Assembly: GCA_965242865.1 (NCBI GenBank)
Contig: CBDETK010000008.1
Span: 56,915-120,914, forward strand
DNA from: Candidatus Latescibacterota bacterium
GTDB lineage: Bacteria > Latescibacterota > UBA2968 > UBA8231
Length of the DNA stretch: 64,000 bases
Direction: 5' to 3'
Position numbers and translations under genes: made by a program
In this document: piece after piece, positions 25,808 through 58,839 of the stretch
How positions within the stretch are numbered: position 1 is the first letter of the stretch
Layout: each line of letters begins with the position of its first letter
The notes under the pieces: model-generated
Told to the model about the DNA's origin: nothing
Seen by the model: the letters and a program-made list of their open reading frames with translations, nothing else
Databases searched by the model: none

Positions 25808-26283
25808 GTCGTGAATGCTCTCGTGCGCGTTGCCGCGCTGGCTGCCGCACGACTCCCTGCGCTGGCTGCCGAATGCATTTCCCAGAACTGCTTCAGTCCA
25901 GTTGCTGCCGGGTGGATGGCGATTCTTCTTGCTCGCAAGCCAGCTTGCTCAACTCGATGGACATTTGGCTGCGGGCAGTTCATTTCGGATGCCATCGTAG
26001 GGCGATTGACACTGCGGCCGCTCTGCCAGCTCGCTGCTGGAGATTGAGATTCTGAAATCCACCTGCAGTCCACATACCTAGGTTGCGCCAATTCGATGAT
26101 TGCGAACGTCCTATACGATTCCAGAGACTCCCGGCCGTCGCAAGGCACCCATTCCAGATCCATACTCGTCCCGTCGGTTCCCGTCGCTTCCCCCAACAAC
26201 TTCATTGTCTCACAAGCCGCCGGCCGTGCGCTAGCAGCCGTTGCGCCGACAGGGACAATTCGACGTGACGCGGTCCTACCCAC
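25804..26283 (-). CDS. Hypothetical small protein, ATGA-coupled to the methyltransferase fusion (start uncertain: 26283, 26205 or later)
   Basis: Stop TGA (25804-25806) overlaps ATG 25805-25807 of the downstream gene. No recognisable motif. Weak coding signal. Confidence 0.3.
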   Translation of the reverse strand: MGRTASRRIVPVGATAASARPAACETMKLLGEATGTDGTSMDLEWVPCDGRESLESYRTFAIIELAQPRYVDCRWISESQSPAASWQSGRSVNRPTMASEMNCPQPNVHRVEQAGLRARRIAIHPAATGLKQFWEMHSAASAGSRAAASAATRTRAFTT

Positions 26284-26328: not shown

Positions 26329-26877
26329 ATGACATTGTTCAGTGGATCAAATCGGCATCCCGAGAGACGGCCAGAGACCGAGGCCAGTCGGATTCTGGAG
26401 CGTTTCTGGAATCGGCGATGCATCCCCGTCGATCCATTCACGATCGCTCGACGGATGGGTCTTGAGGTCAAGCGCGGACCGCTCCCGCAAGACGTTTCCG
26501 GAGTCCTCCGCAAGATCCCCGGAGATGTAGCGGTTATCGTTCTTGAGGCTACGGACTCGTTGAACAGGAAGCGATTCACGTGTGTGCATGAGCTAGGCCA
26601 CTATATACTCCGAGCGGGCGATGCAGACTACATTAATGTCGAGGGTTACGTGGAACTTCGGGGCACAGCCTCAACGCCGGGCGAGATCTCGGATGAGGTC
26701 TTCGCCAATCAGTTCGCGGCATTCTTGCTGATGCCTCGCGAAGAGGTCGTGCGGCGCTTCAGGAGTGACAGGCAGGTGTATATGCTTGCTCCGCATTTTG
26801 GTGTTTCCGATGAGGCAATGCGCTATCACCTAGAGAACCTCAGGATGAAATCAGACAAAGTCCGGCGCGGGCAGTAG
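26329..26877 (+). CDS. ImmA/IrrE family metallo-endopeptidase
   Basis: FTCVHELGHYIL (HExxH) followed by FANQFAAFLLMP, typical of DUF955/ImmA. Confidence 0.85.
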   Translation: MTLFSGSNRHPERRPETEASRILERFWNRRCIPVDPFTIARRMGLEVKRGPLPQDVSGVLRKIPGDVAVIVLEATDSLNRKRFTCVHELGHYILRAGDADYINVEGYVELRGTASTPGEISDEVFANQFAAFLLMPREEVVRRFRSDRQVYMLAPHFGVSDEAMRYHLENLRMKSDKVRRGQ

Positions 26878-28420: not shown

Positions 28421-28545
28421 AGCTGTTCCTGTGGAATCCCGCCAAGTGCGGGGAAAGGGGACACCGGGCTCGCCTGCGATAGGGGCGTTAGGCCGCGGCT
28501 CTCCTCTTATTCTAGCCCCTCCAGAGGGAAACGGATCGTCGACGC

Positions 28546-30141
28546 TTAGCCGTCCTGCAGGGAGGGCGGGCCTTCGCGCCAGGCGTTCCAGAGTCGTTCG
28601 AGTCCTGCTACGCGCTCCGGCTGGGACCCGGCGAGATCGTTCAGTTCCGTCCCGTCGGCCTCCAAGTCATAGAGTTCCCATGGTTCGTCCCGGACAGCGA
28701 CCAATTTCCACCGCCCCTGCCGAATCGCTCTGCCGCGGCTCCACTGCCAGTACAGTTCGCTCGGCGGCTCTCGCGAGCCGCCTTTGAGTACCGGCAGCAA
28801 ACTGCGGCCATCCATGGGATGCACGGGCGAGCCATTGAATTCTGTCGGTTGCGCGACGCCAGCCGCTTCCAAGAACGTTGGCATCAAGTCGATCACGTGC
28901 GCCAATTGGTCGGTGATGCCTCCGGTATCGCCAATCACGTCCGGCCAGCGTGCGATCAGCGGGACGTTGATGCCGCCTTCGTGGTCATGCTGCTTGTAGA
29001 GGCGGAAGGGCGTGTTGGACGCGTTCGCCCATCCGTATCCGTAGCTCTGGTAGGTGTCCTCGGGGCCCGGCATGACCTCCGGCACGTTGCCCGGCACGAC
29101 CGGCCTCCCGTCCCGCGTTTGCTCCGGCAGGTACGGACCCTCGCGATCCGTCGTGTATTCGACATGGCAGCCGCCGTTGTCGACTTGGAAGACCACCAGC
29201 GTGTTGTCCGCTTCACCCGAGGCCTCGAGGAGGTCGAGCAGCTTGCCGATCCCGCGATCCATGCTCGTGACCTGCGCGGAATAGACCTCCATCCGGCGTT
29301 GCTGCCACGCCTGGTGCGGCTCGTCCGACCAAGCGGGCACGCGCGGATTGCGCGGCGAGAGATCCCAAGCGGGGTTGACCATCCCGAGTTCCTTGGTCCG
29401 AGCGTGGCGCTCGAGGCGCAGGTCGTCCCAGCCCTTGGCGTAGCGGCCTTCGTAGTGCGCGACATCCTCCGGGAAGGCATGCAGCGGCCAGTGGGCCGCG
29501 GTATACGCGACATAGAGGAAGAACGGCCGATCTTGACTCAGTCCGTCTCGCATGAAGTCCAGGGCGTAGTCGGTGATCGCGTCGGTGTAGTAGAAGTCCG
29601 GATCCATGAAGAGATGCTCGGCCGGATCGTTGTCCAGCATCAGCGAAGCCGGCGTCCAGAAGCTCCCGGCACCCAGCATGGTTCCGAAGAACCGGTCAAA
29701 TCCGCGCTCGCAGGGAAGGCTCTCGCGCCGCTCGTCGTTCGCAAGATGCCACTTGCCGCTCATGTAGGTCGCGTAGCCCGCGTCGCCGAGGGCCTCGGCG
29801 GCCGTGACCACGGATGGCGAGATGGCGCTCTCGTCCGTCAGCGCCTTGGTCGTGTAGCAGCCGCTCAGCAGAGATGCCCGGGTGGGCACGCACATGTTGT
29901 TGGTGTAGTAGCGCGTGAACCGCAGGCCTTGCGCCGCCAAGCGGTCCAGATGCGGTGTCTCGATCTCGCCGCCGTAGCACCCGAGGTCGGAATAGCCCAT
30001 GTCGTCCGACATGATCATCACGATGTTGGGCCGCTTGGGCTCAGCTGGCGCGTCCGGACGCGAGCAACGAACCGCCGCCAATGGCGCAGCGAGCGCGCCG
30101 AGTTGCACGAACCGGCGCCGGTTGATGACGGAGAGATCCAT
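28546..30141 (-). CDS. Arylsulfatase (formylglycine-dependent), Tat signal
   Basis: Twin-arginine INRRRFVQLGA. Sulfatase signature CVPTRASLLSG. MSDDMGYSD metal site. Confidence 0.9.
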   Translation of the reverse strand: MDLSVINRRRFVQLGALAAPLAAVRCSRPDAPAEPKRPNIVMIMSDDMGYSDLGCYGGEIETPHLDRLAAQGLRFTRYYTNNMCVPTRASLLSGCYTTKALTDESAISPSVVTAAEALGDAGYATYMSGKWHLANDERRESLPCERGFDRFFGTMLGAGSFWTPASLMLDNDPAEHLFMDPDFYYTDAITDYALDFMRDGLSQDRPFFLYVAYTAAHWPLHAFPEDVAHYEGRYAKGWDDLRLERHARTKELGMVNPAWDLSPRNPRVPAWSDEPHQAWQQRRMEVYSAQVTSMDRGIGKLLDLLEASGEADNTLVVFQVDNGGCHVEYTTDREGPYLPEQTRDGRPVVPGNVPEVMPGPEDTYQSYGYGWANASNTPFRLYKQHDHEGGINVPLIARWPDVIGDTGGITDQLAHVIDLMPTFLEAAGVAQPTEFNGSPVHPMDGRSLLPVLKGGSREPPSELYWQWSRGRAIRQGRWKLVAVRDEPWELYDLEADGTELNDLAGSQPERVAGLERLWNAWREGPPSLQDG

Positions 30142-31665: not shown

Positions 31666-34600
31666 CTACGGTGCGGGATTGTAGTCGGCTCCGAACGAGC
31701 CGTAGATCTTGCCGGCGCCGTTGTTCCCGCCGGTGGCGCTCATCCAGTGCCCCGTACCGTATTGAGCACCGGTGCCGATGATCGCCCATGTCCCCATCAC
31801 GGCCAACGGGCCGTCGGGGCCTTGGCCCACGAACATGCCGCTGATTTCCGCGGAAAGATCGATATCCGATTTCGCGACGTTCAAGTAGCCTCTTGCGGGG
31901 CCGCTGAAGAAATCGTCGAAACTGGCCTCCGGAGTCCGCGGGGCGGACCAAACGACGTGAGACTTTTGGTTGCGGGGACCGGAGCCGTCCGGATCCGTAG
32001 CGAATATGCTCCCTGTCGAGAAGCCTCCGACAGCATTCTCCAAGGTGGTTCCGTCCTCAAACTCCAAGACCACCCTGCCGTTGCCCGAAGTCGGCCTTTC
32101 GTACGTCGCGGACACGAGTTCCAACTTGTGTCCCAACCGTCCGTCCGCGTCAGTCCACTCGGAGTTGGCCAGACTGTTCAACTGCGCGAGGCCCGCGGCG
32201 TCCATGGAAACCGAGGATCCGGGGTCCGGCGGATCGCTGGTGTCGAAGAGATTGATGAAATCCTGCCGAGCAACCCCCGGCAGGTTGTCGGCCGCGTTAA
32301 TCGCTCGGCCGTCGCTCGGGCGGTTCCCGCCGCTGTGGTGAACGCGCAACCTCCCCGCGCTTAGTTCTAGCGTGTTGATGTTCCAGAGGGTGTCGTCCCG
32401 GTACCCCTTCAACTCGCCAGGGAGGTCCGCGTACGTGATCTCGACGTCAATGTCGGTCTCCTCGAAGCCGATCTTGCCGCTCGCGTCGGCCCCGATGTCA
32501 GCCCAGAACGTCAGCGTCTCGACATCGAACGTGCCGGGCCTGGACCGCGTGAAGGTATTGTCCGCGGCCCGGTAGTTGATCAAGCCGTGCTGCAGCAAGC
32601 CGAAGCCCCCTCCGGATTCCCGGGCGGTCAGGTCGCTGATGTCGACGCGGAGGTCGCCCGCGACGGTCGCGGCGTCCCATTGCACCCGTGCCGTGACATC
32701 GCCTTCATAGAAGACGGTGTGCTGCATGGCCACCGTTCTCCCCTCGTAAGTCGCCAGCACGCCGGCGGGGTATCTCGACGAGCTGATCGAGTCGTAATCC
32801 GACTGGGCCAGCGGGCTGTAAGCGAACGGCTCGCCGAACTCCTCGATCCTGTGGTAGCCGCTGTAGCTCCCATTCCGCCAGGACGACAGCCGGTGGGCCG
32901 CGTACTGGCTCGTGTGGATCTGCCAGGCTCCCAAGCGGGTATGGTCCGTGGTATCGGTCAGAAACAGGATTCGCGTCGGCGACTTGTTCCACATGATATC
33001 GACCGAAGGATCGACGCCGCTGCCGCTGTCGAACCCGCTATCCGCCTTGCCGTAGAAGATCCCGCCCTCCGCGAAAGCGTCCGCGAAAGCGTCCCGGTTC
33101 TCCAGTGCTGCCAGCACGTCTTCGACCCGGGTGATGACCTCGCGGTCCCTGGCCAGGCCCGCGCTAGTCACCGGGTAATCGCTGTGAGCCGTCCACGCGG
33201 TCGCCGCGTCTCCCTCGAGTGGCGTCGTCTCGGCCGGGTCCAGCACGCCGCTATCCCGGCTCGCGTCCCTGCCCCGCGTGATGAAGTCCTTGCCTCTGTT
33301 GTCCGGGCCCAGCAGATGGCCTCGGATCCAGTTCTGCATCTCGTCGAAGATTCGCTGTCGCTGGTCGTTGGCGAAGCGGGTGTCGTCGGCGCTCGCTTCC
33401 GCGCCGTCCAGGCTGACCACTCTCCGCAACTGGCCGAGCAGCTTGGTGAGCTCTTCCCGGACGACTTGGACATGCGTCGGCGACTTGAACTCGGCCGATG
33501 CGGCGACCCGCACACGAGAATCTCTGGATTGCGGCTCGTACCCGTCCGTGAACAGCCGCTCGCGATCCAGCGTGAACTTGTAGAAATTGCGAGGTTCGTT
33601 CTTGAAGTCGTAAAACTCGTAGCTGCGGTCGTCTCCGAGGTTCCCCAAGCGCAAGTAGCTCGCGACGACGAGGTTGTTGTTCTCGGTGCTGATCGTAGTC
33701 CGCGACTCGGTGATCGCCACTCCCGGCTCTCCTCCCGGATATTCGATCGGCTCTAGATCCGATGCCGGGCGCAACCCGCCGTTTCCCGACCGTCTCGACA
33801 GTACCACCCGTCTGGAGACGCTCGCGGCCGTCGCAAAGTCGGGTTCTGGCGGCGCGGTCGTCGACATCAACGTGCCGTCGTCGCGGGCCGCGCCGAAAAC
33901 AGCTGCCGCTACTTCCAAGGGATTCTGGGACGCGCTGCCTGCCGCTACCGTGCTCCGGAAGGCGGTCACGGCGGCACTCGCCGCCGCAACGGTGTATCCC
34001 GCTCTCCGCAGCGCCGCTTGGAACTGGCTCACGGCCGCCTCGACCGCAGCTTCGTCCGCCGGGTCCAGCGCGGCCTGCTCGCCCAGCCCGGCCGCCGACA
34101 GCGCCAGCCGGAATTGGTCCTCCTCCAAAGGCTCGCCTAGGATGCCCCGGGCCCGGGCCGTGCTGAACGCGTTCGCAGCCGTTCGCGATATGTCCTGATC
34201 CGGAGTGCCTGCCAGCACAGTCTGTCGGAAGGAAAGCGCTACCGTGCGCGCCGCGGCCGGGCCGTAACCGGCCGCCAGCAAAGCTGCTTGGAATCGATTC
34301 ACCACCGCCTCCACGGCGTCGGTGTCCGCCGGGTCCAACGCACTGCCCTCGCCCAGTCCGGCTGCCTCCAGCGCCGTACCGAACAGGGAGCGCTCGCGGG
34401 CCGCCTGCCGGTCCGACGGAATCGGGGCGCGCATCGCCCCGAAGCCGCCCGCCAGGAGCGTGGACCCGCGACTGTCCGCGATCTTCCAGGCCCCAAGCAC
34501 CTGCGCGCCGACATCGACCTCGCGGCCCAGCAGTCGACCGCTGAAATCGCCCTCGACGCCCGTCTCCAGTTCCGGTGCGCCGCCCGGCAGCGAGTAGTAG

Positions 34601-36633
34601 GACAGCCGTACCGCGCCCTCGCGCTCCGCCCAACTGCCGTTGCGCCGCAGGTTCGCTTCCGGCAGCGTGATCGCCTCGACCGCCCCGCCGAAGCCGTACG
34701 TCCAAGCCGCGCCGGTGTCCGTCCGCGCTAGATTCAGCACCACGCCGTCCACTCGTTGCGGCCCGAATCGCACCTGCACGTCCATGTCGCCCGCGTACAA
34801 GACGCCCTTGCTGTCTGCCGCGTAGGTCCCGCCGGTGTAGTAGGCGTTGCCTTGCACTTGGACATGGTTAGCCCTTCGCACGGGCTCCACGGTCGACCAC
34901 GCGAACCCTTGCGCCCGCCGTCCGCTCGACAGTTCCTTGGTCGCGTCAGCCCTCTCCACGTAGCTCGCCGCGCCGTAACGCACGTCTCCAATCACGCTCA
35001 GGGCGGCTTCTGCTGTCCACTCTTCCGCGTCGAAGGCCTTGGCCGCGTTCGCCGCGCTGAGCGTATTGAACCCTCCGATGAAGTCGCTGCCGCCCTGCTC
35101 GGTCGCCGCCGCCAGGCTCTCCGCGCTCGAGAACGCTTCCACTACCCGGTCGAACGAGTCCAGCAGCCGATTCCGGTTGTATTCGCGCTCCAACTCCAAG
35201 TCGTCATCGCCGAAGAACGCCCTCAGATGCCTCTCCGCGCTCGCCCAGTGACGGTCGAGCAGGCTCCTGAAGGTGGCCTGACTGTCCGCGAAGGTCCCGG
35301 CCCGCTCCGTCTCCACGAGCCGCTCCATCTGGCCGCGGATCTTGGTCAGCTCGGTCAGCGTGCTCGCTGCCAGACGCGGTCCCGCCGCGGTAGCCTGCCC
35401 GCTGCCCAGCAGGTCGCCCATGGCGAACTCCGCCTGCACAACCTCCAGCGTCACGCCCGTCTCGTCGATTGCGGTCTTGCGGTCGTCCGTGCTCAGCATC
35501 GGCAATTCGTTGGCGCCCGCAGCGTCCTCCTTCATGGCCGTGCCCTCAGCCATCGGCAGGTCGTAGCGCATGCCCGAGAACATGCCCTCGGCGTCCATTG
35601 CCACGCGATACAGCGCGCCGTACAAGGAGATGTTGCCGCTGCCGTCGGCCGGCAGCGTGACGCCGGTCGCGCCTGCTACCGAGTAGCCCCCGCTGTCCTC
35701 GTCGCGCGTCACCTGCAGATCCGTGCCCGCGACCTGCAGAGCCTCCGGCGCGTACTCGGCCGTCCAGACGCCGTCGGCCAGAGTCAGCGTGTAGGCGTTG
35801 GTGTCGCCCGCTTGGTTCTCCGCCTCGACGGTGCCGCCCGACGCCACGGTCCGCTCGCCCATCTGCCACGAGCCGTCCTCGGATCGCGACACCGTCGCCG
35901 AGCCGCCTTCGGCGCCCAGCGCCAGCGTCTGCACAGTGGCCCTGTAGGTGCCCACCCAGCCACCGCGCTCGGTGCGCTCCAGCGCGTACTCGTTGCCGTT
36001 CGCGGTGACGATCGCCCCCGCCATCACGGTCATGCCGTCCGCGTCCTGGAAGGTGTCGTCCTCTTGTCGATACAGCGTCAGCGTGCCGCCCAGCTGGCCT
36101 AGCGCTGCCGTCACGGCCTCCGGCACGTACACGGCCATGGGCACGCCATCCTCTCCCAGCTCAACGCCGTAAGTGTTGCCGTTCTCGGTGGTGTAACGTG
36201 TTTCGGCGGTGATGGTCGTGCCGTCGGGGAGCGCGTAGGAGCCGTCCTCTTGGCGGGTGATGATGACCAATTCGCCTCTGGTCCCCAGCGGAACGGTCAC
36301 TTCAACCGGGTTGTAGGTCGCCGCCCACGTACCGTCCTCGCTCATGCTGAGGGTGTAGCTGTTGCCGTTCGAGCTGGTCGTCATGGTCTCGCCGGATATG
36401 ACCGGTGCGCCGTCCAGCGTGTAGCCGCCGGATTCGGTGGGCATCAAGGTCACCGACTCGTCGCTGGAGCCGAGTGCGACCTCCACGGCGTGTGAGTGGG
36501 ACCGTGCCGGGGGACCGGTTACAGCGCCTTGCTCGTCAACCCCGAGCGCTGCCGGACAAAGTGCCAGCACGATGCATGGTGCGAGAAGGGATCGCCCCCC
36601 CCCATTTCTGTGCCCGAGTCGAAAGATCGTCAT
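31666..36633 (-). CDS. Giant (1655 aa) secreted/surface protein with two TbpB/fHbp-like beta-barrel modules
   Basis: One uninterrupted ORF. Signal peptide with a possible lipobox-like LALC. Five ~60-aa N-terminal repeats. Barrel signatures at 34424..34860 and 31669..32760, ending GGFGAMR and YGSFGADY. See findings. Confidence 0.85.
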   Translation of the reverse strand: MTIFRLGHRNGGGRSLLAPCIVLALCPAALGVDEQGAVTGPPARSHSHAVEVALGSSDESVTLMPTESGGYTLDGAPVISGETMTTSSNGNSYTLSMSEDGTWAATYNPVEVTVPLGTRGELVIITRQEDGSYALPDGTTITAETRYTTENGNTYGVELGEDGVPMAVYVPEAVTAALGQLGGTLTLYRQEDDTFQDADGMTVMAGAIVTANGNEYALERTERGGWVGTYRATVQTLALGAEGGSATVSRSEDGSWQMGERTVASGGTVEAENQAGDTNAYTLTLADGVWTAEYAPEALQVAGTDLQVTRDEDSGGYSVAGATGVTLPADGSGNISLYGALYRVAMDAEGMFSGMRYDLPMAEGTAMKEDAAGANELPMLSTDDRKTAIDETGVTLEVVQAEFAMGDLLGSGQATAAGPRLAASTLTELTKIRGQMERLVETERAGTFADSQATFRSLLDRHWASAERHLRAFFGDDDLELEREYNRNRLLDSFDRVVEAFSSAESLAAATEQGGSDFIGGFNTLSAANAAKAFDAEEWTAEAALSVIGDVRYGAASYVERADATKELSSGRRAQGFAWSTVEPVRRANHVQVQGNAYYTGGTYAADSKGVLYAGDMDVQVRFGPQRVDGVVLNLARTDTGAAWTYGFGGAVEAITLPEANLRRNGSWAEREGAVRLSYYSLPGGAPELETGVEGDFSGRLLGREVDVGAQVLGAWKIADSRGSTLLAGGFGAMRAPIPSDRQAARERSLFGTALEAAGLGEGSALDPADTDAVEAVVNRFQAALLAAGYGPAAARTVALSFRQTVLAGTPDQDISRTAANAFSTARARGILGEPLEEDQFRLALSAAGLGEQAALDPADEAAVEAAVSQFQAALRRAGYTVAAASAAVTAFRSTVAAGSASQNPLEVAAAVFGAARDDGTLMSTTAPPEPDFATAASVSRRVVLSRRSGNGGLRPASDLEPIEYPGGEPGVAITESRTTISTENNNLVVASYLRLGNLGDDRSYEFYDFKNEPRNFYKFTLDRERLFTDGYEPQSRDSRVRVAASAEFKSPTHVQVVREELTKLLGQLRRVVSLDGAEASADDTRFANDQRQRIFDEMQNWIRGHLLGPDNRGKDFITRGRDASRDSGVLDPAETTPLEGDAATAWTAHSDYPVTSAGLARDREVITRVEDVLAALENRDAFADAFAEGGIFYGKADSGFDSGSGVDPSVDIMWNKSPTRILFLTDTTDHTRLGAWQIHTSQYAAHRLSSWRNGSYSGYHRIEEFGEPFAYSPLAQSDYDSISSSRYPAGVLATYEGRTVAMQHTVFYEGDVTARVQWDAATVAGDLRVDISDLTARESGGGFGLLQHGLINYRAADNTFTRSRPGTFDVETLTFWADIGADASGKIGFEETDIDVEITYADLPGELKGYRDDTLWNINTLELSAGRLRVHHSGGNRPSDGRAINAADNLPGVARQDFINLFDTSDPPDPGSSVSMDAAGLAQLNSLANSEWTDADGRLGHKLELVSATYERPTSGNGRVVLEFEDGTTLENAVGGFSTGSIFATDPDGSGPRNQKSHVVWSAPRTPEASFDDFFSGPARGYLNVAKSDIDLSAEISGMFVGQGPDGPLAVMGTWAIIGTGAQYGTGHWMSATGGNNGAGKIYGSFGADYNPAP
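33870..34395 (-). repeat. In-frame tandem duplication, 2 x ~270 nt (90 aa), inside the giant gene
   Basis: ALEAAGLGEGSALDPADTDAVEAVVNRFQAALLAAGY... versus ALSAAGLGEQAALDPADEAAVEAAVSQFQAALRRAGY.... The string gtccgccgggtcca recurs at 34324 and 34054. Confidence 0.75.
35580..36495 (-). repeat. Five degenerate ~60-aa coding repeats at the N-terminus of the giant protein
   Basis: Recurring pattern V.V.LG..G.L.....EDGS(Y/W) ... T.NGN.Y.L...EDG.W.A.Y.P, read in the translation. Confidence 0.65.
36595..36603 (-). repeat. G9 homopolymer in codons 11-13 of the giant gene (C9 on the + strand)
   Basis: Coding strand reads AAT GGG GGG GGG CGA (N G G G R). Confidence 0.95.
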
Positions 36634-36680: not shown

Positions 36681-36692
36681 GGGGGGGGGGGG
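36681..36692 (-). repeat. C12 homopolymer 48-59 nt upstream of the giant-gene ATG (G12 on the + strand)
   Basis: Read directly: ctc gggggggggggg tgaag. Confidence 0.95.
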
Positions 36693-37316
36693 TGAAGACT
36701 GACACTTTCCCCGACCTTCTCCCGATCGCGCCTGCGCTCCTCGCGAAAGCCCGACTCTTGATATTGTAGACTGATCGTGCGGAGCATTGTCAACTCTACT
36801 GCATCCGGGCGGTACAGGGGATGGCAATCCGAATATCAAAACTTTGTAAAGAATCTGATCAAGAGTGAAATCTGCCCATCGCTCGCCAGTCCGCCGATGC
36901 GGAAAATCGAATGTCTGGACAATCGGCTTGGAGGAACCGCAGGGGCGAGACTTCGCAACTAGAAGCTAGACCTACTTCTATTCGGGACGAACGATCCGGC
37001 GAGACAGCTTGTGGTATACGGGGTGTCTTGGCCGTAGCGCGCACCGGGGATTTGATCGCCGAGACAATGAGAAAGCCATGCACGACGCGTCAAGGCCGCA
37101 AGAAGCCTAGCCAATGACGAAGGGGACGAACCACGTTTGACCGTCGGTCCGGAGTGATTCGTCGGAGTGCGCGGGGGCGGGCAATGCCTCGTGTTTTCAA
37201 TCGTCGACGCGGCGGGACTCAGACGAGTTAACCCGCAGGGCCCGGTTGGTTCGATGACGCGACGGAATATCGCAGTTGCACGAATTGCGCCGCAGAGCAC
37301 GTGCCCTCCCGATGCC

Positions 37317-38807
37317 TCACAGTTCGGCGAGTTCCGGATTCTCGGCGGCCCATTCCAAGAAGTCCTCGACGGTATAGAACGTCTCGTGCCTGTACAGCCG
37401 GCCCCGGTCCTCGACCGGCACTGTCCAGTCGTGGTCCCACGAGTCTCCCGTGCGCTCCATCCAGTCCGCAATCTTTCCTTCGAGCTCGGCTTGGATTGCC
37501 GCCGCCTCGGGCTTGTCAACCAGGTTGTTTAGTTCGTAGGGATCCGCATCGAGGTCATAGAGAACCCAAGGAGCCTCCCTCGTGCGGGCGTACATGTAAC
37601 GCTTGGTTCGGACCCCGCGCCAACCCGCGTCGACGCCTCCCGAGATGTACGGCCCGAGGATCTGGAAGTAAGCGGATTCCGGCCCGCTCTCGGACTCGCC
37701 GAGAATGACCGCCGACAGATCGCTGCCCTGCATCGCCGGATCGGGGTCCAAGCCGCATAGCGAAAGGAGGGTAGGGGCCATGTCGACATGCGAGAACAGC
37801 TCGTCCGTCACGCGACCGCCCGGAGCCCGCGGGTGCCGCACGATGCCCGGCACATTGATCGATTCCTCCCAAGGCTTGCGCTTCAGGCGCGCTCCCTGCG
37901 AACCGAGCATGTCTCCGTGGTCCGAGGAAACGACCACGATCGTGTTCTCCCGCAAGCCCAGAGCGTCCAGTTCGGCCATGAGCCGGCCGACTTCGACGTC
38001 AAGCGCCGTGATCATGGCGTAGTAGGCCGTGATTTCCTTGCGGCCCGGTATCCTGCGATTCGGATTCGACTCCGGATCGGGAGTCGATTCCTCGCCCTTG
38101 TAATTGGGGCGGAGCGTGATCGCTTCCGGGTCGTACATCGCCATGTAGTCCTCCGGCGCGATGTAGGGGTTGTGGGGCGGACCCATCTGAACGGTCAGGA
38201 AGAACGGACGCTTGTCTTCGCGGGTCTGCTGCAGGAACTCGATGCCCAGATCCGCCCAGACCTCGGCCTCGAACCGCTTGATCGGGATGGGCTCCGGATC
38301 GTCGCGGAAGTATTGCGTGTCGAAATGCCGGTGGCTGACTTCGTTGGCTGCCCAGAACTCGAAGCCTTGGCGGCGCGGTCCGGGCGGGATCCAGCCTGGC
38401 TGGCGCGGCCCGCCGTCCAGGTGCCACTTGCCGATAAAGCCCGTCCTGTAGCCGGCCTCAGCGAAAAGCTCGGCAACGCTCGTTTCGGACTCGCGCAAGC
38501 GGAGGTCGTTGGCGACCATGCCGTTGGCATGGGCGTACTTGCCGGTGAGGATGATCGCTCGCGCCGGGCAGCACACCGGTGTGTTGGCGAGATGATTGCG
38601 GAACAAGAGCCCTTCGGAGGCCAGCTTGTCCAGGTGGGGTGACTTGACGTCGGGGTTGCCCATGCACCCCATCGCGTGAGCCCGCATCTGATCGGGGAAC
38701 AGGAACAGGACGTTGAGCGGTGCGTCCGGTCCTTTGGAACCGGATCCGCAGGCGAGGGTTCCCAGCAGGGCTCCGCCCGAGGCCATGAAGTCACGTCGCG
38801 TCAGCAT
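37317..38807 (-). CDS. Sulfatase (formylglycine-dependent), Tat signal
   Basis: MLTRRDFMASGG twin-arginine leader. CCPARAIILTG sulfatase signature. FPDQMRAH metal site. Confidence 0.9.
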   Translation of the reverse strand: MLTRRDFMASGGALLGTLACGSGSKGPDAPLNVLFLFPDQMRAHAMGCMGNPDVKSPHLDKLASEGLLFRNHLANTPVCCPARAIILTGKYAHANGMVANDLRLRESETSVAELFAEAGYRTGFIGKWHLDGGPRQPGWIPPGPRRQGFEFWAANEVSHRHFDTQYFRDDPEPIPIKRFEAEVWADLGIEFLQQTREDKRPFFLTVQMGPPHNPYIAPEDYMAMYDPEAITLRPNYKGEESTPDPESNPNRRIPGRKEITAYYAMITALDVEVGRLMAELDALGLRENTIVVVSSDHGDMLGSQGARLKRKPWEESINVPGIVRHPRAPGGRVTDELFSHVDMAPTLLSLCGLDPDPAMQGSDLSAVILGESESGPESAYFQILGPYISGGVDAGWRGVRTKRYMYARTREAPWVLYDLDADPYELNNLVDKPEAAAIQAELEGKIADWMERTGDSWDHDWTVPVEDRGRLYRHETFYTVEDFLEWAAENPELAEL

Positions 38808-39110: not shown

Positions 39111-39638
39111 CTAACTGTCCTCCTCGAGATCGAAGTGAGCCCGCAGTGCCGCAGCATCTTGGCGATCAATCGGTCTCATGGTCCCTCTCTTGAGCCGGTG
39201 TAGAGCGGCCGGAGTGGCTACTCGGATTCGAACTCCCCGATACTCCATGGTTTCCGCATCGACCGACTCGAACGTCGCCTTCTCGCTAATTCCGGCGATG
39301 AGGTCCAAGCAGAGTTTCTCGCTTGGAGGATAGTATCTGACCACGGGATAGAACCCCATCAGGTCGTCGGCTCGGATTTCTTCAATGCTCGGATCGTCTT
39401 GATACGCCGACCGGAGGGCCGCGGCGATTCGTTGGATGTTCTCGCGACTTGCTTTGACCAGTAAGTCCACATCTTCGGTTCCCCGAATGATCCCATGCAT
39501 ACCCAACGCGGCAGCTCCTACCAAGGTGTACTCGACACCAGCCTGGTCCAAGGCTCTGAAAACACGTATCAACTCTTCGCGATCCACCGTGCCAAGGGTA
39601 GCAAGGGAGGAGCTAACTGAGTCCTTGAATCGGGTCAT
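39111..39638 (-). CDS. Nucleotidyltransferase-fold protein (MNT/DUF6036-like)
   Basis: LVGAAALGMHGIIRGTEDVDLLV matches the G[SA]..x(9-12)..D.D NTase signature. 175 aa. Confidence 0.6.
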   Translation of the reverse strand: MTRFKDSVSSSLATLGTVDREELIRVFRALDQAGVEYTLVGAAALGMHGIIRGTEDVDLLVKASRENIQRIAAALRSAYQDDPSIEEIRADDLMGFYPVVRYYPPSEKLCLDLIAGISEKATFESVDAETMEYRGVRIRVATPAALHRLKRGTMRPIDRQDAAALRAHFDLEEDS

Positions 39639-40048
39639 CCGCCTGCGTCGGCCGCTCTTGGGCGAGCGAACCCGAGGTCGATGCGAATGCGGGAGCGGCG
39701 ATCGTGCGTATCCGGCGATTCAGTGCCCTCGAGCGGGAAATCCGCTGCGCTCCGACCGCGAGCGCCCGAGGTGCTCAAGAAGCGCGACCCCGCAACGCAC
39801 CGCGGGCGCGACGCTGCTTGCGGCACTGAGACGAATCGCAGTAAGTGCAACAAGATAGCAGATAATTAGCGACACGCGGTGACTCCGGACGCGACGGAGC
39901 GGCCACGCGGCCAGATCGCAAATACATGAAACAGCTTCGTGCGCTGTGCGCGCATTGTCGGCAACGCGCGCTCGCGCACCACCTAGGCCGGAGAGCTATG
40001 CATCAAGTTGAACTTGAGACGATGTTGCAGAAAGGCTACAATCGGGGC

Positions 40049-41194
40049 ATGCAGACCTTCCGCAAGGTTCTCTTTTGGCTGCACCTCATTTGCGGCGTGG
40101 CGGTCGGCTTGGTCGTCTTCGTGATGTCGGCCACGGGCGTCGTCCTGACCTACGAGAAGCAGATGGAGCGGTGGGCCGACGGTTTCGAGGTGGGCGAGGA
40201 ATGTGGCGAGGGTGCCCGGCTGGGGCCGGAGGCGTTGCTCGCGGCCACGCGAGCGTCCACCGGGAGAGTGCCGACCGCGATACTCGTCCGTTCCGACCCG
40301 TCGCAGCCTGTGCGCGTCTCGTTCGGGCGCCAGTCGAACGAGGTCCATCCCTGCACCGGAGAATCGATGGGGGAGGGCGCGCCGCAAGTGCATGGCTTTT
40401 TCCATCAGATGATCCTCTGGCACCGCTGGCTGGGCCAGGAAGGCGACGGGCGCAGCGTAGGCAAAGCGATTACCGGAGCCTGCAATCTGGCATTCCTGTT
40501 CATCATCCTGTCGGGTTCGTACCTGTGGTGGCCGAAGCAATGGACGTGGAAGCAATTGCGCGGGATCGTGCTGTTCCGGGGCGGACTGAAGGGCAAGGCG
40601 CGCGACTTCAACTGGCATAACGTGTTCGGGCTTTGGTGCGCCGTGCCGCTCTTCATCGTGGCTGGCACGGCCGTGTTCTTCTCATACTCGTGGAGTTCCG
40701 ATCTGCTCTATGCCGTTACCGGCGAGGAGCGGTCAGCTTCAAGCGGACGGGGCCGAGGGGGCGGGGCGGCAAGCCCCGGGCAGGAGAGTGAAGAGCCTCC
40801 CGGTTTCACGGGACTCGACGCGCTCTGGAAAACGGCAGTTGCCATCGAGCCCGATTGGAGATTGATCACGATGCGCATTCCGGAACGTCCGCAGGCCCCG
40901 GTCTCGTTCACGCTCGACCGCGGGAACGGCTTCCGACCGGATCTCCGCACCACCGTGGTGCTCGACCGCAGCACCGGCAAGGTCGTGCGCCAGGTGGAAT
41001 ACGCTGACAATCCAAAGGCGGCCAACGCCCGGTCTTGGATCCGCTGGCTGCACACCGGGGAAGCGGGCGGCCTCGCCGGGCAAACCTTGGCCGGGATCGT
41101 CTCGCTGGCCGCTTGCTTTCTGGTGTACACGGGCTGGATGCTGAGCTGGCGTCGCTTTCAGGCTTGGCGGACTAGGAATCGCGGATCCCCGTGA
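40049..41194 (+). CDS. PepSY-associated TM helix protein (PiuB-like)
   Basis: MQTFRKVLFWLHLICGVAVGLVVFVMSATGVVLTYEKQ is the typical PepSY_TM N-terminus. Four TM segments. ATG 40049 preferred. Confidence 0.8.
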   Translation: MQTFRKVLFWLHLICGVAVGLVVFVMSATGVVLTYEKQMERWADGFEVGEECGEGARLGPEALLAATRASTGRVPTAILVRSDPSQPVRVSFGRQSNEVHPCTGESMGEGAPQVHGFFHQMILWHRWLGQEGDGRSVGKAITGACNLAFLFIILSGSYLWWPKQWTWKQLRGIVLFRGGLKGKARDFNWHNVFGLWCAVPLFIVAGTAVFFSYSWSSDLLYAVTGEERSASSGRGRGGGAASPGQESEEPPGFTGLDALWKTAVAIEPDWRLITMRIPERPQAPVSFTLDRGNGFRPDLRTTVVLDRSTGKVVRQVEYADNPKAANARSWIRWLHTGEAGGLAGQTLAGIVSLAACFLVYTGWMLSWRRFQAWRTRNRGSP

Positions 41195-41810: not shown

Positions 41811-44222
41811 GTGCATCCTAATTCACCCTATAGGCGTGATCGACGCTGCCTGTTCGCATGGCGGTTTCGTGCGCTTGCAGCGTTGCTTGCCGCGTCCTCC
41901 GGCGGTATCGCTACGGGTCAAGACACGGTCGGAACCGCATCAGTTCGCGGAGTCGTGCAACGGCATGACGGCACTCCTGGCGCGGGCTTGCGAGTTTGTA
42001 TCGCGGATACGAATCAATGCGCCGTCAGCGACGGGGAGGGGCGGTTCGGCACTCTTGACGCCCGCCCGGGGACCCGTCGGCTCGAAGTCCAACTGGAGCT
42101 GGGCGTCGTCCTGGCAACTCGCGAAGTCGAGACTCGCGCCGGCCTCACCAGCGAGGTGCAACTCGTGCTGCCGGAAGTTGGAGCGGTGGAGACTTCGATC
42201 ACCGTGAATGCCTCCGCGGTGACCACGCCCGACGAGGTCGTCACCTCCGGCGTGCGCATCCGAAACCGGGAAATCGCGAAGGTGGCGGACGGGATGCAAG
42301 ATGTCTCGCGGTACGTGGCGACCCTACCCGGCGTCATGACGGGCTCGGCGGACTTCCGCAACGACATCATCGTTCGCGGTGGGAGCCCGTTGGAGAACTT
42401 GTTCATTGTCGACAACATCGAGATTCCGAACATCAATAGCTTCGCGAACCTAGCCTCCGCCGGGGGCACGTTCAGCCTGTTGGACGTGCAGTTGATCGAG
42501 GACGTGACGTTCTTGACGGGAGGGTATCCGGCACCGTACGTCAACCGGCTCTCGAGCGTCATGCAGGTCACCCAGCGCGAGGGCAGCCGGGAGAAGTTCC
42601 GGGGACGCGCCACGCTGGCGTACGCCGGGGCCGGGGGAGTGCTGGAGGGTCCATGGGGCGGAGGGAACGGTTCGTGGATCGTGTCCGGCCGCCGGAGTTT
42701 CTTGGACCTGTTCGGCAACAATCTCGGCACGGGCGGCGTGCCGGTCTATTACTCGTTCACCGGCAAGGCCGTGCGGGACTTCGGCTCTCTGGATCGGGTT
42801 TGGATCACCAGCATCACCGGCCTGGACACCGTCCGACTCGGTCCGTCCGACGATCTAGATCCCGCCGACGAGTTGAACACCGTCGATATCCGCTACAGCG
42901 GATTTCGCAACGCGACGGGATTCAATTGGCAGCACATCTTCGGCTCGCGGGGCGTAGGCCTGCTGGGTCTGACCCATTCTCGGGCGAGGGTCGATTCGAC
43001 AGTCAAGGACCTTGTTCGGAACGGCCCGTTCGCGCCCGGCGCGGACATCGAGCAACGGCTCGCGGCCGGAGCGGTCGCCTTCCGGCAGGACGCGACGGAA
43101 GACGAAACGACGCTGAAGTACGACTTGACGCTGCATGGGAACCGCTTCGGCGAGTTCCGCCTCGGCGCCACGCAGAAGCGCTTCGTGAACAACTACATCA
43201 CGCTCTCGCCGCTGGGCTACGACGGTCCCTACACGCGGGTTCCTGACATCAACCCGATCAACTTGCGGGAGCGCATCACGGCCGCGCAGTCCGGGGCGTA
43301 CCTGCAGGGCACGCACTCCTTGGCTCCGCGGGTCCGCCTGACTCTCGGGGGGCGCTTCGATCGCTACGCGCATTTTGGGAAAGCGCATACGCGCTTCAGT
43401 CCGCGGGCCGCCCTCCGGGTGGGTCTCGGGGGCAACCTTTCATGGAACACGAGCTGGGGCCTGTACCACCAATTGCCCTTGTATCTCTTCATGAGCGCGT
43501 TCGAGTCGAATCGGGCGCTGCGGCCGGCGCGGTCGGAACATTGGGTTACCGGAATCAGCTGGATCCCGCGGCCCAGCCTGCGAGTGACTGTCGAGGGATA
43601 CGCGAAGAACTACAAGGACTACCCGGCTTCGACCCAGTTCCCGCAGCTCTCCTTCGCCAACGTGGGCGACACCTTCAATGTCCGCGACATCCTGTATCCG
43701 ATGTCGAGCGTCGGCAGGGGGAGATCCCGCGGGGTCGAATTCTTCGTCGAGAAGAAATCGGAACAGAACTGGTTCGGGCAACTGAACTTCGCTTACTCGC
43801 GGACCTATCATGCCGGGCGCGATCACGTGTTTCGTCCTGGCGCGTTCGACCGTCCCTTCGCCTTCAACGCGGTTGGCGGCCGCCGACTCGCCGCCAACTG
43901 GGAACTCGCCATGCGCACCTCTTACCTGACCGGCAGGCCGTACACGCCGTTCCACGGGGAGTTGTCGCGGGCGCAGCAACGAGGCATCTTCGATCTAGAC
44001 CGAGTGAACGCGTTACGGCTTCCGGCCTTCTTCACGCTCGACCTGCGTGTCGACCGCATCTTCCGCGTCGGCGACCAGACAGCGGTGGTTTACGCGGGCC
44101 TGCAGAACGTGACCGGCCGCCAGAATCGGACGAGCCCATCCTGGAATCGCTTGACGAACGAGGCCGGGGCGAGTGACGCTTTCGGTCGCCTTCTGATCAT
44201 GGGCATGGAATGGGCCTTCTGA
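41811..44222 (+). CDS. TonB-dependent receptor with N-terminal carboxypeptidase-regulatory-like domain
   Basis: VRGVVQRHDGTPGAGLRVCI...DGEGRF (CarboxypepD_reg), plug IIVRGGSPLENLFIVDNIEI, C-terminal aromatic ...GMEWAF. Confidence 0.85.
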   Translation: MHPNSPYRRDRRCLFAWRFRALAALLAASSGGIATGQDTVGTASVRGVVQRHDGTPGAGLRVCIADTNQCAVSDGEGRFGTLDARPGTRRLEVQLELGVVLATREVETRAGLTSEVQLVLPEVGAVETSITVNASAVTTPDEVVTSGVRIRNREIAKVADGMQDVSRYVATLPGVMTGSADFRNDIIVRGGSPLENLFIVDNIEIPNINSFANLASAGGTFSLLDVQLIEDVTFLTGGYPAPYVNRLSSVMQVTQREGSREKFRGRATLAYAGAGGVLEGPWGGGNGSWIVSGRRSFLDLFGNNLGTGGVPVYYSFTGKAVRDFGSLDRVWITSITGLDTVRLGPSDDLDPADELNTVDIRYSGFRNATGFNWQHIFGSRGVGLLGLTHSRARVDSTVKDLVRNGPFAPGADIEQRLAAGAVAFRQDATEDETTLKYDLTLHGNRFGEFRLGATQKRFVNNYITLSPLGYDGPYTRVPDINPINLRERITAAQSGAYLQGTHSLAPRVRLTLGGRFDRYAHFGKAHTRFSPRAALRVGLGGNLSWNTSWGLYHQLPLYLFMSAFESNRALRPARSEHWVTGISWIPRPSLRVTVEGYAKNYKDYPASTQFPQLSFANVGDTFNVRDILYPMSSVGRGRSRGVEFFVEKKSEQNWFGQLNFAYSRTYHAGRDHVFRPGAFDRPFAFNAVGGRRLAANWELAMRTSYLTGRPYTPFHGELSRAQQRGIFDLDRVNALRLPAFFTLDLRVDRIFRVGDQTAVVYAGLQNVTGRQNRTSPSWNRLTNEAGASDAFGRLLIMGMEWAF

Positions 44223-44398: not shown

Positions 44399-45547
44399 GT
44401 GTTCCGCTGGGCCGGAACGAAGAGGACGGTGTCGGTGCATCCGGGCCCGTTCTTGCCAGGTGCAGGAGGGCTGCCGCCCTGTTTGGCCGGAAGGGAGCGA
44501 GAGCAAACCGAGATAGATGATTTTCTTGAAGCTATTCGCTCCGGGGTGCCGCCGCCATCGATGCTGATCCTTTACGGGCCACGCGGGAAAGGCAAGACCA
44601 CGCTGCTGAACTGGACCAGTCGACAGGCTCTTGATCAAGGTATTCGATCTCTCCGATTAGAGGCCTCCGAGATCCTAACGGAGGACACGCCGGCCAAGCC
44701 TCAATTGCCGGATACTTGGTTGACTAAGATTTTCCAAGGCGTTTCTCGGCGCGGCTCAGGGGTTCGCTTGCGGAGGCCAGAAGCCAGCAACGTGACAAAG
44801 GCATTGGCTCGCCTTGCGAAGAAGAGTCCGACGGTCATTCTCATTGACGAAGCTAACACTCTGGAAACGACCTTGGGTGCGCAACTGCTGCAAGCGGCTC
44901 AGACACTGGCTGGGGACGGCAAGCCATTCCTATTGGTACTCGCAGGTACTCCCGACTTGCCGAGCCGTCTGCGGAAGATGCGCGTGACTCTCTGGGATAG
45001 AAGCGCGATCTTCCCGCTGCAAAGGCTCGATGACCGTGCCTCGTCCGATGCCATTCAGATCCCATTCGAGAGGGCCGGTTACGGTATCGCTCCTGCAGCA
45101 CTGGAGAGCATAGTCAGAGACAGCCGCGGATACCCTTACTTTCTGCAACTCTGGGGAAGGGCCCTATGGAGCCAAGTGCGCCACTCCGTCGGGCCGAGCA
45201 GGATGGAAGAGGTGAATCGAGTCCGCCCGCGAGTCGAAGAAACGAGAAACCGATTCTACTTGGAGCGGTATCAAGAGTTGAAGGACAGGGGACTGGTCGC
45301 CTCGGCCGTTGCCTTAGCCCAAGCGTACGAGGGTAGCGACAGCATGGATGACTACAGGGTCGACCAGGTGCTGAAGCGCGCTCTTGAGGCGGATGGCCAG
45401 ATGACCGGGTCGTCGGAGTTGATGCAGGTCCGCCCAGAGCTGCACGACCTCGGCTACATCTGGTCCCCGGGCGGAGCGAGGAAGAGCCTCTATATCACCG
45501 GGATTCCAAGTCTGATGTCGTTCGTCGCAGATGGCGCCCACCACTAG
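44399..45547 (+). CDS. AAA ATPase (ORC/Cdc6- or Arch_ATPase-like)
   Basis: GREREQTEIDDFL then Walker A LYGPRGKGKTTLL, Walker B VILIDEANTL. GTG start. Confidence 0.7.
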   Translation: MFRWAGTKRTVSVHPGPFLPGAGGLPPCLAGREREQTEIDDFLEAIRSGVPPPSMLILYGPRGKGKTTLLNWTSRQALDQGIRSLRLEASEILTEDTPAKPQLPDTWLTKIFQGVSRRGSGVRLRRPEASNVTKALARLAKKSPTVILIDEANTLETTLGAQLLQAAQTLAGDGKPFLLVLAGTPDLPSRLRKMRVTLWDRSAIFPLQRLDDRASSDAIQIPFERAGYGIAPAALESIVRDSRGYPYFLQLWGRALWSQVRHSVGPSRMEEVNRVRPRVEETRNRFYLERYQELKDRGLVASAVALAQAYEGSDSMDDYRVDQVLKRALEADGQMTGSSELMQVRPELHDLGYIWSPGGARKSLYITGIPSLMSFVADGAHH

Positions 45548-58527: not shown

Positions 58528-58839
58528 TCATAAGAGATCGAGCTAGGGCAAATACGCGAGCGCGAAGATGTGCGAGATGATCTGCCGGAAGAGCAGCACA
58601 GTATTCGAATGACCAGCTAGTGTGCGGCAAGTGTGGGCTCCATGCCCATTCGCGAGCCGGAGCTGACCCTTCACGAGCCCTCGACAGAGTGCTATGCCGT
58701 GTGCGATGACGCCCCGGTGGCAGCCCCCGGGGCGATCAGCCGACGACCGAATTTCCCTAGCGACGGTCTGACCGGTCGGCCGGGTCGAATGCCCTTGCGC
58801 GATAATTGCCACGGGCCAAGACGGCTTTCGGCTGGACCG

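Follow-up and report, generated by a model that had tools for sequence, protein, structure and literature searches.

The gene and its product

The 64-kb window analyzed here (64,000 nucleotides of contig CBDETK010000008.1, taken as a whole) carries on its minus strand the gene for a 1655-residue protein, exactly where a preliminary description made from the sequence had placed it (Table 1). The protein comprises a signal peptide, a stalk of five β-strand repeats, and two tandem lobes, each built from a mainly helical handle and an eight-stranded barrel. The gene belongs to a multi-copy family, most members of which bear long G or C tracts at their 5' ends. We favor, with moderate confidence, the interpretation that the family is phase-variable and consists of binding proteins that are secreted or on the cell surface.

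Table 1. Positions of the giant gene, its parts and one neighboring gene in the window (aa, amino acid residues of the 1655-residue protein; nt, nucleotides)
Feature	Position	Strand	Basis
Whole open reading frame, 1655 aa + stop, ATG start	31666..36633	(-)	Direct reading of DNA
Promoter-like TTGACA - 19 nt - TACAAT, ~130 nt 5' of ATG	36763..36793	(-)	Inferred from sequence; conserved in orthologs
Poly-C (C12, sense strand) in leader, ending 47 nt before ATG	36681..36692	(-)	Direct reading
Poly-G (G9, sense strand), codons 11-13, GGG GGG GGG, 'NGGGR', signal-peptide n-region	36595..36603	(-)	Direct reading
Signal peptide, aa 1-31, cleavage MTIFRLGHRNGGGRSLLAPCIVLALCPAALG/VDEQ	36541..36633	(-)	Read by inspection
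Five tandem ~62-aa β-strand repeats, aa 49-360	35554..36489	(-)	Repeat HMM and all-β model
Lobe 1 handle, aa 361-594: short β strands, helix bundle aa ~405-534, three-stranded sheet aa ~539-580	34852..35553	(-)	DSSP of model mfae8082248b0
Barrel 1, aa 595-737, eight-stranded, TbpB/fHbp/NHBA/hemophilin type, C-terminal LLAGGFGAMR	34423..34851	(-)	AlphaFold2 and Foldseek
Inter-lobe linker, aa 738-960, Ala-rich, tandem ~90-aa duplication, clade-specific	33754..34422	(-)	Local alignment
Lobe 2 handle, aa 961-1292: helices aa ~1054-1216, then β sheet	32758..33753	(-)	Model m0073f2a2148a
Barrel 2, aa 1293-1655, split: strands aa ~1293-1337 and aa ~1589-1655, ends KIYGSFGADYNPAP	31669..32757	(-)	Barrel-1 profile, Foldseek
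Variable β-rich insert in barrel 2, aa ~1338-1588	31870..32622	(-)	Model m0073f2a2148a
947-aa protein, NPPF methyltransferase motif, no Pfam match	22964-25807	(-)	Defense/mobile-type surroundings

Orthologs of 1649–1655 residues share 78–96% identity with the window protein. The open reading frame (ORF) is intact in five related assemblies, with intact copies at L013 and L019–L022 (sponge-metagenome contigs included) and at a 97.6%-identical metagenome-assembled genome (MAG) locus (L001), where it again encodes 1655 residues. None of these loci carries a broken copy, and the ORF is not a chance one. An exact look-up of the protein returned no database record, and the whole protein matched nothing in Pfam (scanned at E ≤ 1), NCBIfam, or the PDB sequences. 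The promoter-like element upstream of the gene falls outside the output of the consensus scan, which accepts spacers of 16–18 nt only.

The signal peptide noted in the preliminary description is borne out by inspection of the sequence. It reads as a signal-peptidase-I type with the site 'PAALG/VDEQ' and without a canonical lipobox. The repeats had been described as five units of ~60 residues at aa ~48–350 that could not be assigned to a named family, and a repeat hidden Markov model (HMM) indeed delimits five domains (aa 49–110, 111–172, 173–233, 234–297, and 298–360; E 5e-27 to 3e-8). Their consensus is VxVxLG..G..VTL...EDG.y.L.G..v.sG....NGN.Y.L.l.eDG.W.A.Y.P., and AlphaFold2 models them as all-β with predicted local distance difference test (pLDDT) values of 80–94. 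Across the family, the same HMM counts 3–12 copies per protein. No family could be assigned by searching the repeat profile against PDB and Pfam, and the repeats map to no common domain in either. The weak, scattered matches to Ig-like and adhesin proteins (endofucoidanase 6dms, E 0.0018; 'putative inner membrane protein' 2yn3; Adhesin_Dr; Invasin_D3) were not usable.

Two tandem lobes with TbpB-type barrels

The AlphaFold2 model of aa 32–760 (mfae8082248b0; mean pLDDT 89.1), which reaches into the inter-lobe linker only to aa 760, predicts the first barrel to be eight-stranded and of the lipoprotein-type fold, with boundaries that differ by only a few residues from the aa ~592–736 proposed initially. 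The top Foldseek matches of this barrel in the PDB, all with a probability of 1.0, are LbpB (7jrd, E 2e-7), TbpB (4o3y, 4o49, and 4qq1), the C-domain of NHBA (6cuj, TM(target) 0.72), hemophilins (7re4, 8glo, 6om5, and 8gmm), fHbp (8bk2, TM(target) 0.69), and PmSLP (9b3e). The three structures suggested for comparison, TbpB, fHbp, and hemophilin, are thus all among them. The matched folds are those of the known cargo barrels of Slam and the type XI secretion system (T11SS). A search of the same model against BFVD returned uncharacterized viral proteins with low TM values, which were set aside.

The second barrel had been described as a domain spanning aa ~1292–1655. Module homology and a weak fold match to fHbp uphold the barrel itself, although its sequence is interrupted. 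In the window protein, the barrel-1 profile finds two separated stretches, aa 1228–1327 (E 1e-8) and aa 1589–1621 (E 9e-4); therefore, barrel 2 is split by a variable insert of approximately 260 residues. In the lobe 2 model (m0073f2a2148a, pLDDT 76), the insert has mixed pLDDT values of 36–97, and it is poorly conserved, being aligned by 11–25 of 120 relatives. The inter-lobe linker is aligned by only ~10 of the 120, and its internal duplication yields a local alignment score of 162 vs 39.6 ± 7.7 in shuffled sequences. Alignment of module 1 with module 2 by hhalign gave a probability of 99.9% and an E value of 1.3e-36. On this sequence comparison, the two lobes read as an internal duplicate of one helical-handle and barrel module.

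The only recurrent Pfam matches among the relatives are to FHBP_C and TbpB_B_D. PF08794 (FHBP_C) is found below threshold (E ≥ 0.003) in 6 of 21 barrel-1 sequences. PF01298 (TbpB_B_D) is found in two distant relatives with E values of 1.3e-4 and 5.8e-3; the scores, all below threshold, are 23.0 bits for P0112, against a cut-off of 26, and 17.6 bits for P0090, in which the match spans profile positions 1–123 of 126. In the Pfam scan for membership of either family, another relative, P0044, reached 21.2 bits against a cut-off of 28.1. Two points weigh against a TbpB-type assignment: no profile match of the window protein or its relatives reaches a Pfam threshold or is accompanied by a PDB sequence match, and the best Foldseek match of barrel 2 (fHbp 8bk2_B) is weak, with an E value of 1.7e-3 and a probability of 0.99. 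The Foldseek matches, the sub-threshold profile matches, and the module duplication nevertheless jointly support the structural reading made initially, and TbpB-type barrels are very likely present. Two results were discarded: the sole match of the barrel-1 profile to PDB sequences, a chance hit to arenavirus glycoprotein G1 (E 0.17), and the DUF5633 matches of two relatives, which are sums of 13–15-residue fragments.

A rare multigene family with predicted lipidated and non-lipidated members

A word-index search retrieved 130 homologs, none of which is named or has a Pfam family, and cluster look-ups of family members gave no names or accessions. With the barrel-1 profile, 352 proteins were found at E ≤ 1e-3 among 1.84 billion representatives, most of them matching in two or three stretches that correspond to both barrels. 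Nothing in this set indicated that the profile extends to the large TbpB-like families of Proteobacteria. All 120 listed homologs align over a conserved core, aa 50–737, and fewer do so over the C-terminal half. A literature search found no description of the family, which is rare and unnamed. It is present in many copies per genome: at least 15 genes in eleven loci on the 6.73-Mb contig CBDEST010000005.1, labeled 'MAG: Bryobacterales bacterium', at least 22 paralogs on a 5.79-Mb contig, and tandem triplets on a 3.74-Mb contig. The 6.73-Mb contig, on which L001 lies, has a GC content of ~64–65%. The multi-copy family, the lipoprotein relatives, the duplicated handle and barrel module, and the 5' C12 and G9 tracts are absent from the preliminary description.

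Most family members appear to be lipoproteins. A lipobox (L-A-G/A-C) is found at the aligned position in 82 of 120 relatives, followed by a tether of the form 'L-A-G-C-GGDEP-x5-PPAPPPAPPPFQPQ'. The window protein and its nearest relatives (P0001–P0005 and P0007–P0012) have no lipobox cysteine and show AxA-like cleavage sites instead. From the sequences, the window clade seems to have swapped the lipobox for a signal-peptidase-I site, so the window protein is probably released or held non-covalently. A comparable split between lipidated and soluble cargo, as in TbpB and hemophilin, has been described for the T11SS (PMC8406197). The mature start 'C-GGDEP-(x5)-PPAPPPAPPPFQPQ-VEVALG' is nearly invariant (P0010–P0058 and L003–L007), although the proteins are otherwise 30–40% identical and come from different genomes. 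This near-invariance suggests a sorting or docking signal, and the C-GGDEP motif is a candidate sorting signal. We take it to resemble the acidic lipoprotein export signal of Bacteroidetes.

The orthologs of the window gene are of sponge origin. Three ortholog contigs come from samples PANK22-1_SAMN12291530, SAMN12290620, and SAMN12291347, which are tissue of the sponge Agelas clathrodes from Saint Croix and Grand Cayman (Pankey et al. 2022, PRJNA555077; PMC13083261, supplementary file 8). The MAG table of the same source contains 49 MAGs from sponges with the classification Acidobacteriota; Bryobacterales; UBA6623; VXMF01 (PMC13083261). The family occurs in marine MAGs, and the lineage of the window gene is a sponge-symbiotic Bryobacterales acidobacterium. 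Genomes with family genes (L018 6701-7588; L014, L017, L004, L009, L010, and L012) further code for ankyrin-repeat proteins, numerous sulfatases, an FGE-sulfatase, and sets of DUF1501/PSCyt/PSD1. Several such traits are often reported for sponge symbionts.

Some copies show signs of recent turnover. Compared with the window, the 97.6%-identical MAG locus L001 contains an insertion of ~5 kb (L001 1838-6980; window 39554-39800) with a second family member of 1287 residues, which has a G14 tract, is out of frame, and adjoins the PepSY_TM and TonB-receptor genes. Since an insertion with an extra member distinguishes such similar genomes, family genes are gained or lost between close strains. A further insertion of ~2 kb follows the sulfatase gene (L001 17995-20008; window 28545-28549). 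L007 and L008 (contig positions 6689602-6712049 and 6633911-6656358) are matched by barrel 1 and the first repeats at identical positions and with identical scores, which points to a recent segmental duplication ~55 kb apart; both copies are without a long G/C tract. The family gene of L006 is apparently split into ORFs of 1296 and 418 residues. The 'Rubritalea sp.' label of this locus (CBDBEG010000052.1) is doubtful: its GC content is 63.8%, far above the values near 50% of described Rubritalea. Either the label or the assembly may be at fault.

Homopolymeric tracts at the 5' ends of the family genes

The leader C12 and the signal-peptide G9 of the giant gene (Table 1) are the only homopolymers of 8 nt or longer in the window. 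The G9 tract is in frame, so the gene is in the ON frame. GGG accounts for 19% of the gene's Gly codons, yet the tract consists of three of them. In 420 kb comprising the window and related loci, 22 of the 24 G/C runs of at least 9 nt are located no more than 650 nt 5' of a family gene's first repeat. This region makes up 3.7% of the sequence (binomial P 9e-30), and a conservative recount without orthologous copies gave 20 of 22 runs (P 1e-27). Of 24 family genes, 17 carry one or more tracts of 9 nt or longer. The tracts are 9–16 nt long with constant polarity, poly-C in the leader and poly-G in the early coding region: the leader poly-C measures 10–13 nt in paralogs from three genomes, and the signal-peptide poly-G ranges from G9 to G16 at the homologous position. 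In L002, a C12 tract (9797-9808) lies inside the coding region, where it encodes the PPPP of the proline tether; it would be a second kind of slippage site within an ORF.

Tract length is polymorphic, and among the assembled paralogs the reading frame depends on it. Orthologous alleles of the window gene carry C12/G9, C10/G9, or C11/G6 within 150 nt of identical surrounding sequence, the C11/G6 alleles being from Illumina-assembled contigs (L021/L022). L023 and L010 are identical at 500 of 503 nt, with G9 vs G12 as the sole difference. In the 5.79-Mb genome, L017 (G13) reads MHSKLKKFGGGGVTLFLAGLLTVGMAGCGGDEP in a single frame, and L014 and L018 (G12), in a nearly identical context, stop after MQS(K/R)LKKFGGGG with the lipoprotein body in another frame. 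Of 22 paralogs in this genome, 15 were called from the internal 'MAGCGGDEP' and are without a signal peptide. In a subfamily of 1290-residue proteins in the Bryobacterales MAG, two copies are ON (G16 and G14) and four are OFF (G14, G12, G11, and G9). With the real start out of frame, the annotation of many paralogs begins at an internal Met, and the family is a clean test case for gene callers. Internal calling was also the explanation for P0267 (1635 residues), which was considered as an OFF allele of the window gene and rejected: its DNA has the G9 tract in frame, and the gene caller took an internal ATG.

In their sequence, the tracts have the defining features of slipped-strand contingency loci, and G/C runs at nearly all 5' ends of the family suggest random on/off switching. 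A literature search found no homopolymer switches described for Acidobacteria or PVC (Planctomycetes–Verrucomicrobia–Chlamydiae) bacteria. The most serious competing explanation, which we consider unlikely but not negligible, is that the tracts are no switches: the poly-C would form a hairpin arm or a Rho/attenuator element, the poly-G would be a tolerated Gly run, and expression would be conventional or constitutive, while the out-of-frame copies would be long-read homopolymer errors or would be rescued by transcriptional slippage. Several observations count against switching and for this explanation. A hairpin with a G-run of 4–6 nt, a loop of ~10 nt, and the long C-run is predicted in most leaders (window 36693-36740; L016 9900-9960, 15900-15960, and 22270-22330; L006 15400-15440), and directly 3' of the L006 family gene, a G6...C12 hairpin precedes a classic terminator. 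Given this leader pairing and the 3' hairpin, the C-tracts may be structural and part of a small repeated hairpin element. All out-of-frame copies are in contigs whose names suggest long-read assembly, and long-read assemblies miscall long homopolymers. RNA polymerase also slips on runs of 9 nt or more. The window gene itself is in frame (G9 or G6) in all six assemblies, which places the ON/OFF differences among paralogs and not among alleles of this gene. Finally, neither L010 nor L023 is in frame, and the difference of exactly 3 nt between them is not what simple slippage by ±1 predicts. On the other side, length polymorphism is seen in Illumina assemblies with identical flanks, and the tracts are kept in place among paralogs of 30–40% identity across genomes, whereas such runs are avoided elsewhere in the window. 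The tract is built of an infrequent Gly codon, and approximately two-thirds of the copies are out of frame, the share expected from free drift of tract length. On balance, true phase variation of the family is somewhat favored by these sequence comparisons.

Genomic context and export

The window gene is flanked by sulfatase genes (28546-30141 and 37317-38807), as initially reported. A DUF4143 ATPase gene is nearby, and PurA and defense/restriction-type genes lie beyond. All-against-all clustering of neighbor ORFs identified further family members as the only recurrent neighbors, and a Pfam scan of 128 neighbor ORFs from 11 paralog loci revealed no recurrent family, TonB-dependent receptor, or DUF560. 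The family genes look like stand-alone units. The flanking sulfatases were ruled out as functional partners, since beyond the orthologous locus they were seen a single time, in another genome, and at none of the 11 paralog loci. The 947-residue neighbor (Table 1), which recurs near L009, was likewise rejected as a partner; it has the 'NPPF' motif of DNA methyltransferases and sits among defense genes. Other genes of defense or mobile type around the window gene (25804-26283, 26329-26877, 21394-22617, 44399-45547, 45804-46823, and 4151-6504) encode an M78/IrrE peptidase, AAA_15/AAA_21 ATPases, a STAND NTPase, a DruA-like protein fused to DDE_Tnp_1_assoc, and a pair of a methylase and an XcyI-like restriction enzyme. 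Two large outer-membrane barrel proteins with CarboxypepD_reg N-domains are encoded in the window, an OMP_b-brl_4 protein (54281-57652, plus strand), homologs of which lie near the paralog loci L002 and L005, and a TonB-dependent receptor (41811-44222, plus strand).

The context of the gene had been called atypical, and the absence of a Slam from the window and the paralog loci, the lack of a conserved receptor, and an organism outside Proteobacteria agree with this. It is rather unlikely that the family is cargo of a T11SS in which a Slam-like (DUF560) protein elsewhere in the genome recognizes the C-terminal barrel and exports all paralogs; such an arrangement would carry the T11SS beyond Proteobacteria. 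The architecture fits the published definition of such cargo, with a variable N-terminal effector, a pedestal, a C-terminal eight-stranded barrel, and lipidated as well as soluble forms (PMC12282271; PMC8406197). The barrel stands at the extreme C-terminus, and the proteins matched by fold are all known Slam cargo. However, no DUF560 protein is encoded in the window, in L013–L018, or among the 128 neighbor ORFs, and the T11SS has been described as a system of Proteobacteria (PMC8406197). The window does encode a 466-residue tetratricopeptide repeat (TPR) protein (58633-60033, plus strand) that matches TPR_Slam with 53 bits against a cut-off of 35. It matches 22 other, overlapping TPR families as well and has no DUF560 barrel, and the TPR_Slam match is probably a generic TPR match. 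Because no Slam is nearby and the host is not a proteobacterium, the window protein cannot be assigned to T11SS cargo.

The statement that no receptor adjoins the gene holds for the immediate neighborhood, and pairing with a receptor is not recurrent; on the other hand, a PepSY_TM gene (39926-41194) and the TonB-dependent receptor gene lie 3.3–5.2 kb upstream on the opposite strand. This receptor, the nearest one, is 5.2 kb off with two genes between and is not co-oriented. TbpB, LbpB, and HpuA act as co-receptors of TonB-dependent receptors, and the window protein might likewise hand a metal- or heme-carrying ligand to the receptor beside the PepSY_TM reductase-like gene. The two genes are divergent from the side of the sulfatase and the giant gene, and in L001 the second family member sits between them. 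We nonetheless regard a co-receptor role as improbable: a sulfatase gene, a 175-residue ORF, and a 683-bp gap separate the genes, no TonB-dependent receptor recurs at the 11 paralog loci or occurs at L014, L016, L017, or L018, and 15 to more than 22 paralogs per genome are untypical of a dedicated co-receptor. Equally improbable are generic calycin/nitrobindin-like barrels of eight to ten strands that converged on the TbpB shape in an S-layer-like coat or adhesin unrelated to Slam cargo. In favor of this reading, DUF3598 (2o62), BFA1 (5yvf), a de novo barrel (8ah9), and nitrobindin are also among the Foldseek matches, no Pfam or PDB sequence match reaches threshold, the barrel profile recovers no more than the 352 proteins, and the weak Ig-like matches of the repeats fit an adhesin. 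Against it, the Slam-cargo folds outrank all other barrels and no other Pfam families recur. The shared barrel motifs A.Y.G...G.a.v.V.F, G.f.G, and terminal G.FGA presumably correspond to the TbpB_B_D pattern.

Proposed model and its implications

For this family, we infer a binding function, a location on the surface or outside the cell, and switching that is reversible. In the proposed model, the protein would be exported by Sec through its signal peptide, and an extracytoplasmic location, on the surface or secreted, is rather probable. The five-repeat β stalk would carry the two lobes, giving overall the appearance of a stretched, bilobed TbpB. Most paralogs would carry a lipid anchor and be presented at the cell surface by way of the polyproline tether, and proteins of the window clade would be released or held non-covalently. 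The outer membrane may be crossed with the help of a distant Slam-like protein encoded elsewhere in the genome or by another route. Once outside, the lobes would engage an external ligand, and the barrel-2 insert and the repeat number would adjust their reach and specificity; these two variable elements are the likeliest specificity determinants. Slippage of the poly-G tract in the signal-peptide codons would switch individual paralogs on or off by frame, and the length of the leader poly-C would modulate the expression level, so expression of the family is most likely stochastic.

A broader, more tentative possibility, which we put somewhat short of even, is that the dozens of giant TbpB-like genes form a phasome in a sponge-symbiotic acidobacterium, each with a poly-G frame switch and poly-C tuning, so that each cell would express a random subset. 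If true, it would represent the first description outside Proteobacteria of both a contingency-locus system and a TbpB-type barrel family, and it would imply either a non-Slam route across the outer membrane or a T11SS homolog in Acidobacteriota. To our knowledge, TbpB-type barrels and Slam/T11SS export have been described only in Proteobacteria, mostly pathogens, and the proteobacterial TbpB-type barrel proteins capture host nutrients or block host immunity. Finding this fold in an uncultured Acidobacteriota symbiont of Agelas, where no Slam is nearby, prompts one to ask how such barrels arrive at the surface in other phyla. With their poly-G and poly-C tracts, sponge symbionts would have the kind of stochastic surface variation used by Neisseria, Haemophilus, and Campylobacter, and the tracts would provide a testable handle on the long-standing problem of how symbionts evade phagocytosis by the sponge, recognition by the host, or attack by phages.

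Comparison with known systems

By analogy, the window protein may work like a binding protein of the TbpB/hemophilin type combined with a Neisseria-style contingency locus. TbpB and LbpB of Neisseria and Pasteurellaceae (PF01298) are alike in being bilobed, with tandem handle and eight-stranded-barrel modules that arose by internal duplication, and in having a flexible N-terminal tether after the lipobox, which most members of the window family share. They differ in that their handles are β sheets, whereas those of the window protein are mainly helical. The window protein also adds the five-repeat β stalk (3–12 repeats in relatives) and is 2.5–3 times larger. Its gene has no adjacent TbpA-type receptor or Slam and is acidobacterial, and the protein is below the Pfam threshold and without the lipid-anchor cysteine. 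Since the thresholds are not reached, it cannot be assigned to Pfam TbpB_B_D or FHBP_C.

HpuA, the lipoprotein of the Neisseria hemoglobin receptor, presumably has a barrel of the same fold class, and it is not among the Foldseek matches. It is a single-copy, ~35-kDa protein with one lobe, encoded in an operon with the TonB-dependent receptor HpuB, whereas the window family consists of dozens of stand-alone paralogs with an additional leader poly-C. Expression of hpuA, the known example of such a locus in this fold class, is reported to be switched by a poly-G tract within the ORF (PMC3786947). Hemophilin/HphA ('TbpBBDsol'), a soluble T11SS cargo, resembles the window protein in its signal-peptidase-I, non-lipidated nature and in the type of its terminal barrel. 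Hemophilin has only ~250 residues and a heme-binding clamp, and its gene lies beside Slam; no heme-binding domain is recognizable in the window protein. The multi-TbpBBD surface proteins of Sphingomonas and Psychrobacter are also large; they are predicted T11SS cargo with two or three handle–barrel pairs and N-terminal proline-rich repeats (PMC12282271). These proteins are proteobacterial and co-occur with T11SS outer-membrane proteins, their repeats are of Pro-Thr(-Asp) low complexity in contrast to the folded 62-residue β units described here, and no homopolymer switches have been reported for them.

With regard to switching, a further parallel is provided by the Vlp proteins of Mycoplasma hyorhinis, a phase-variable lipoprotein multigene family of wall-less bacteria with a poly-A tract in the promoter spacer. 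Both families consist of multi-copy surface lipoproteins with a homopolymer at each copy and a variable number of internal repeats, although the folds and organisms are unrelated, and the Vlp switch lies in the promoter spacer, whereas the tracts described here are a coding poly-G and a leader poly-C in a diderm, high-GC sponge symbiont. The barrel fold is thus the known part of the system. The β-repeat stalk, the helical handles, the split terminal barrel, the phylum and habitat, and the organization as a large, apparently phase-variable multigene family are new.

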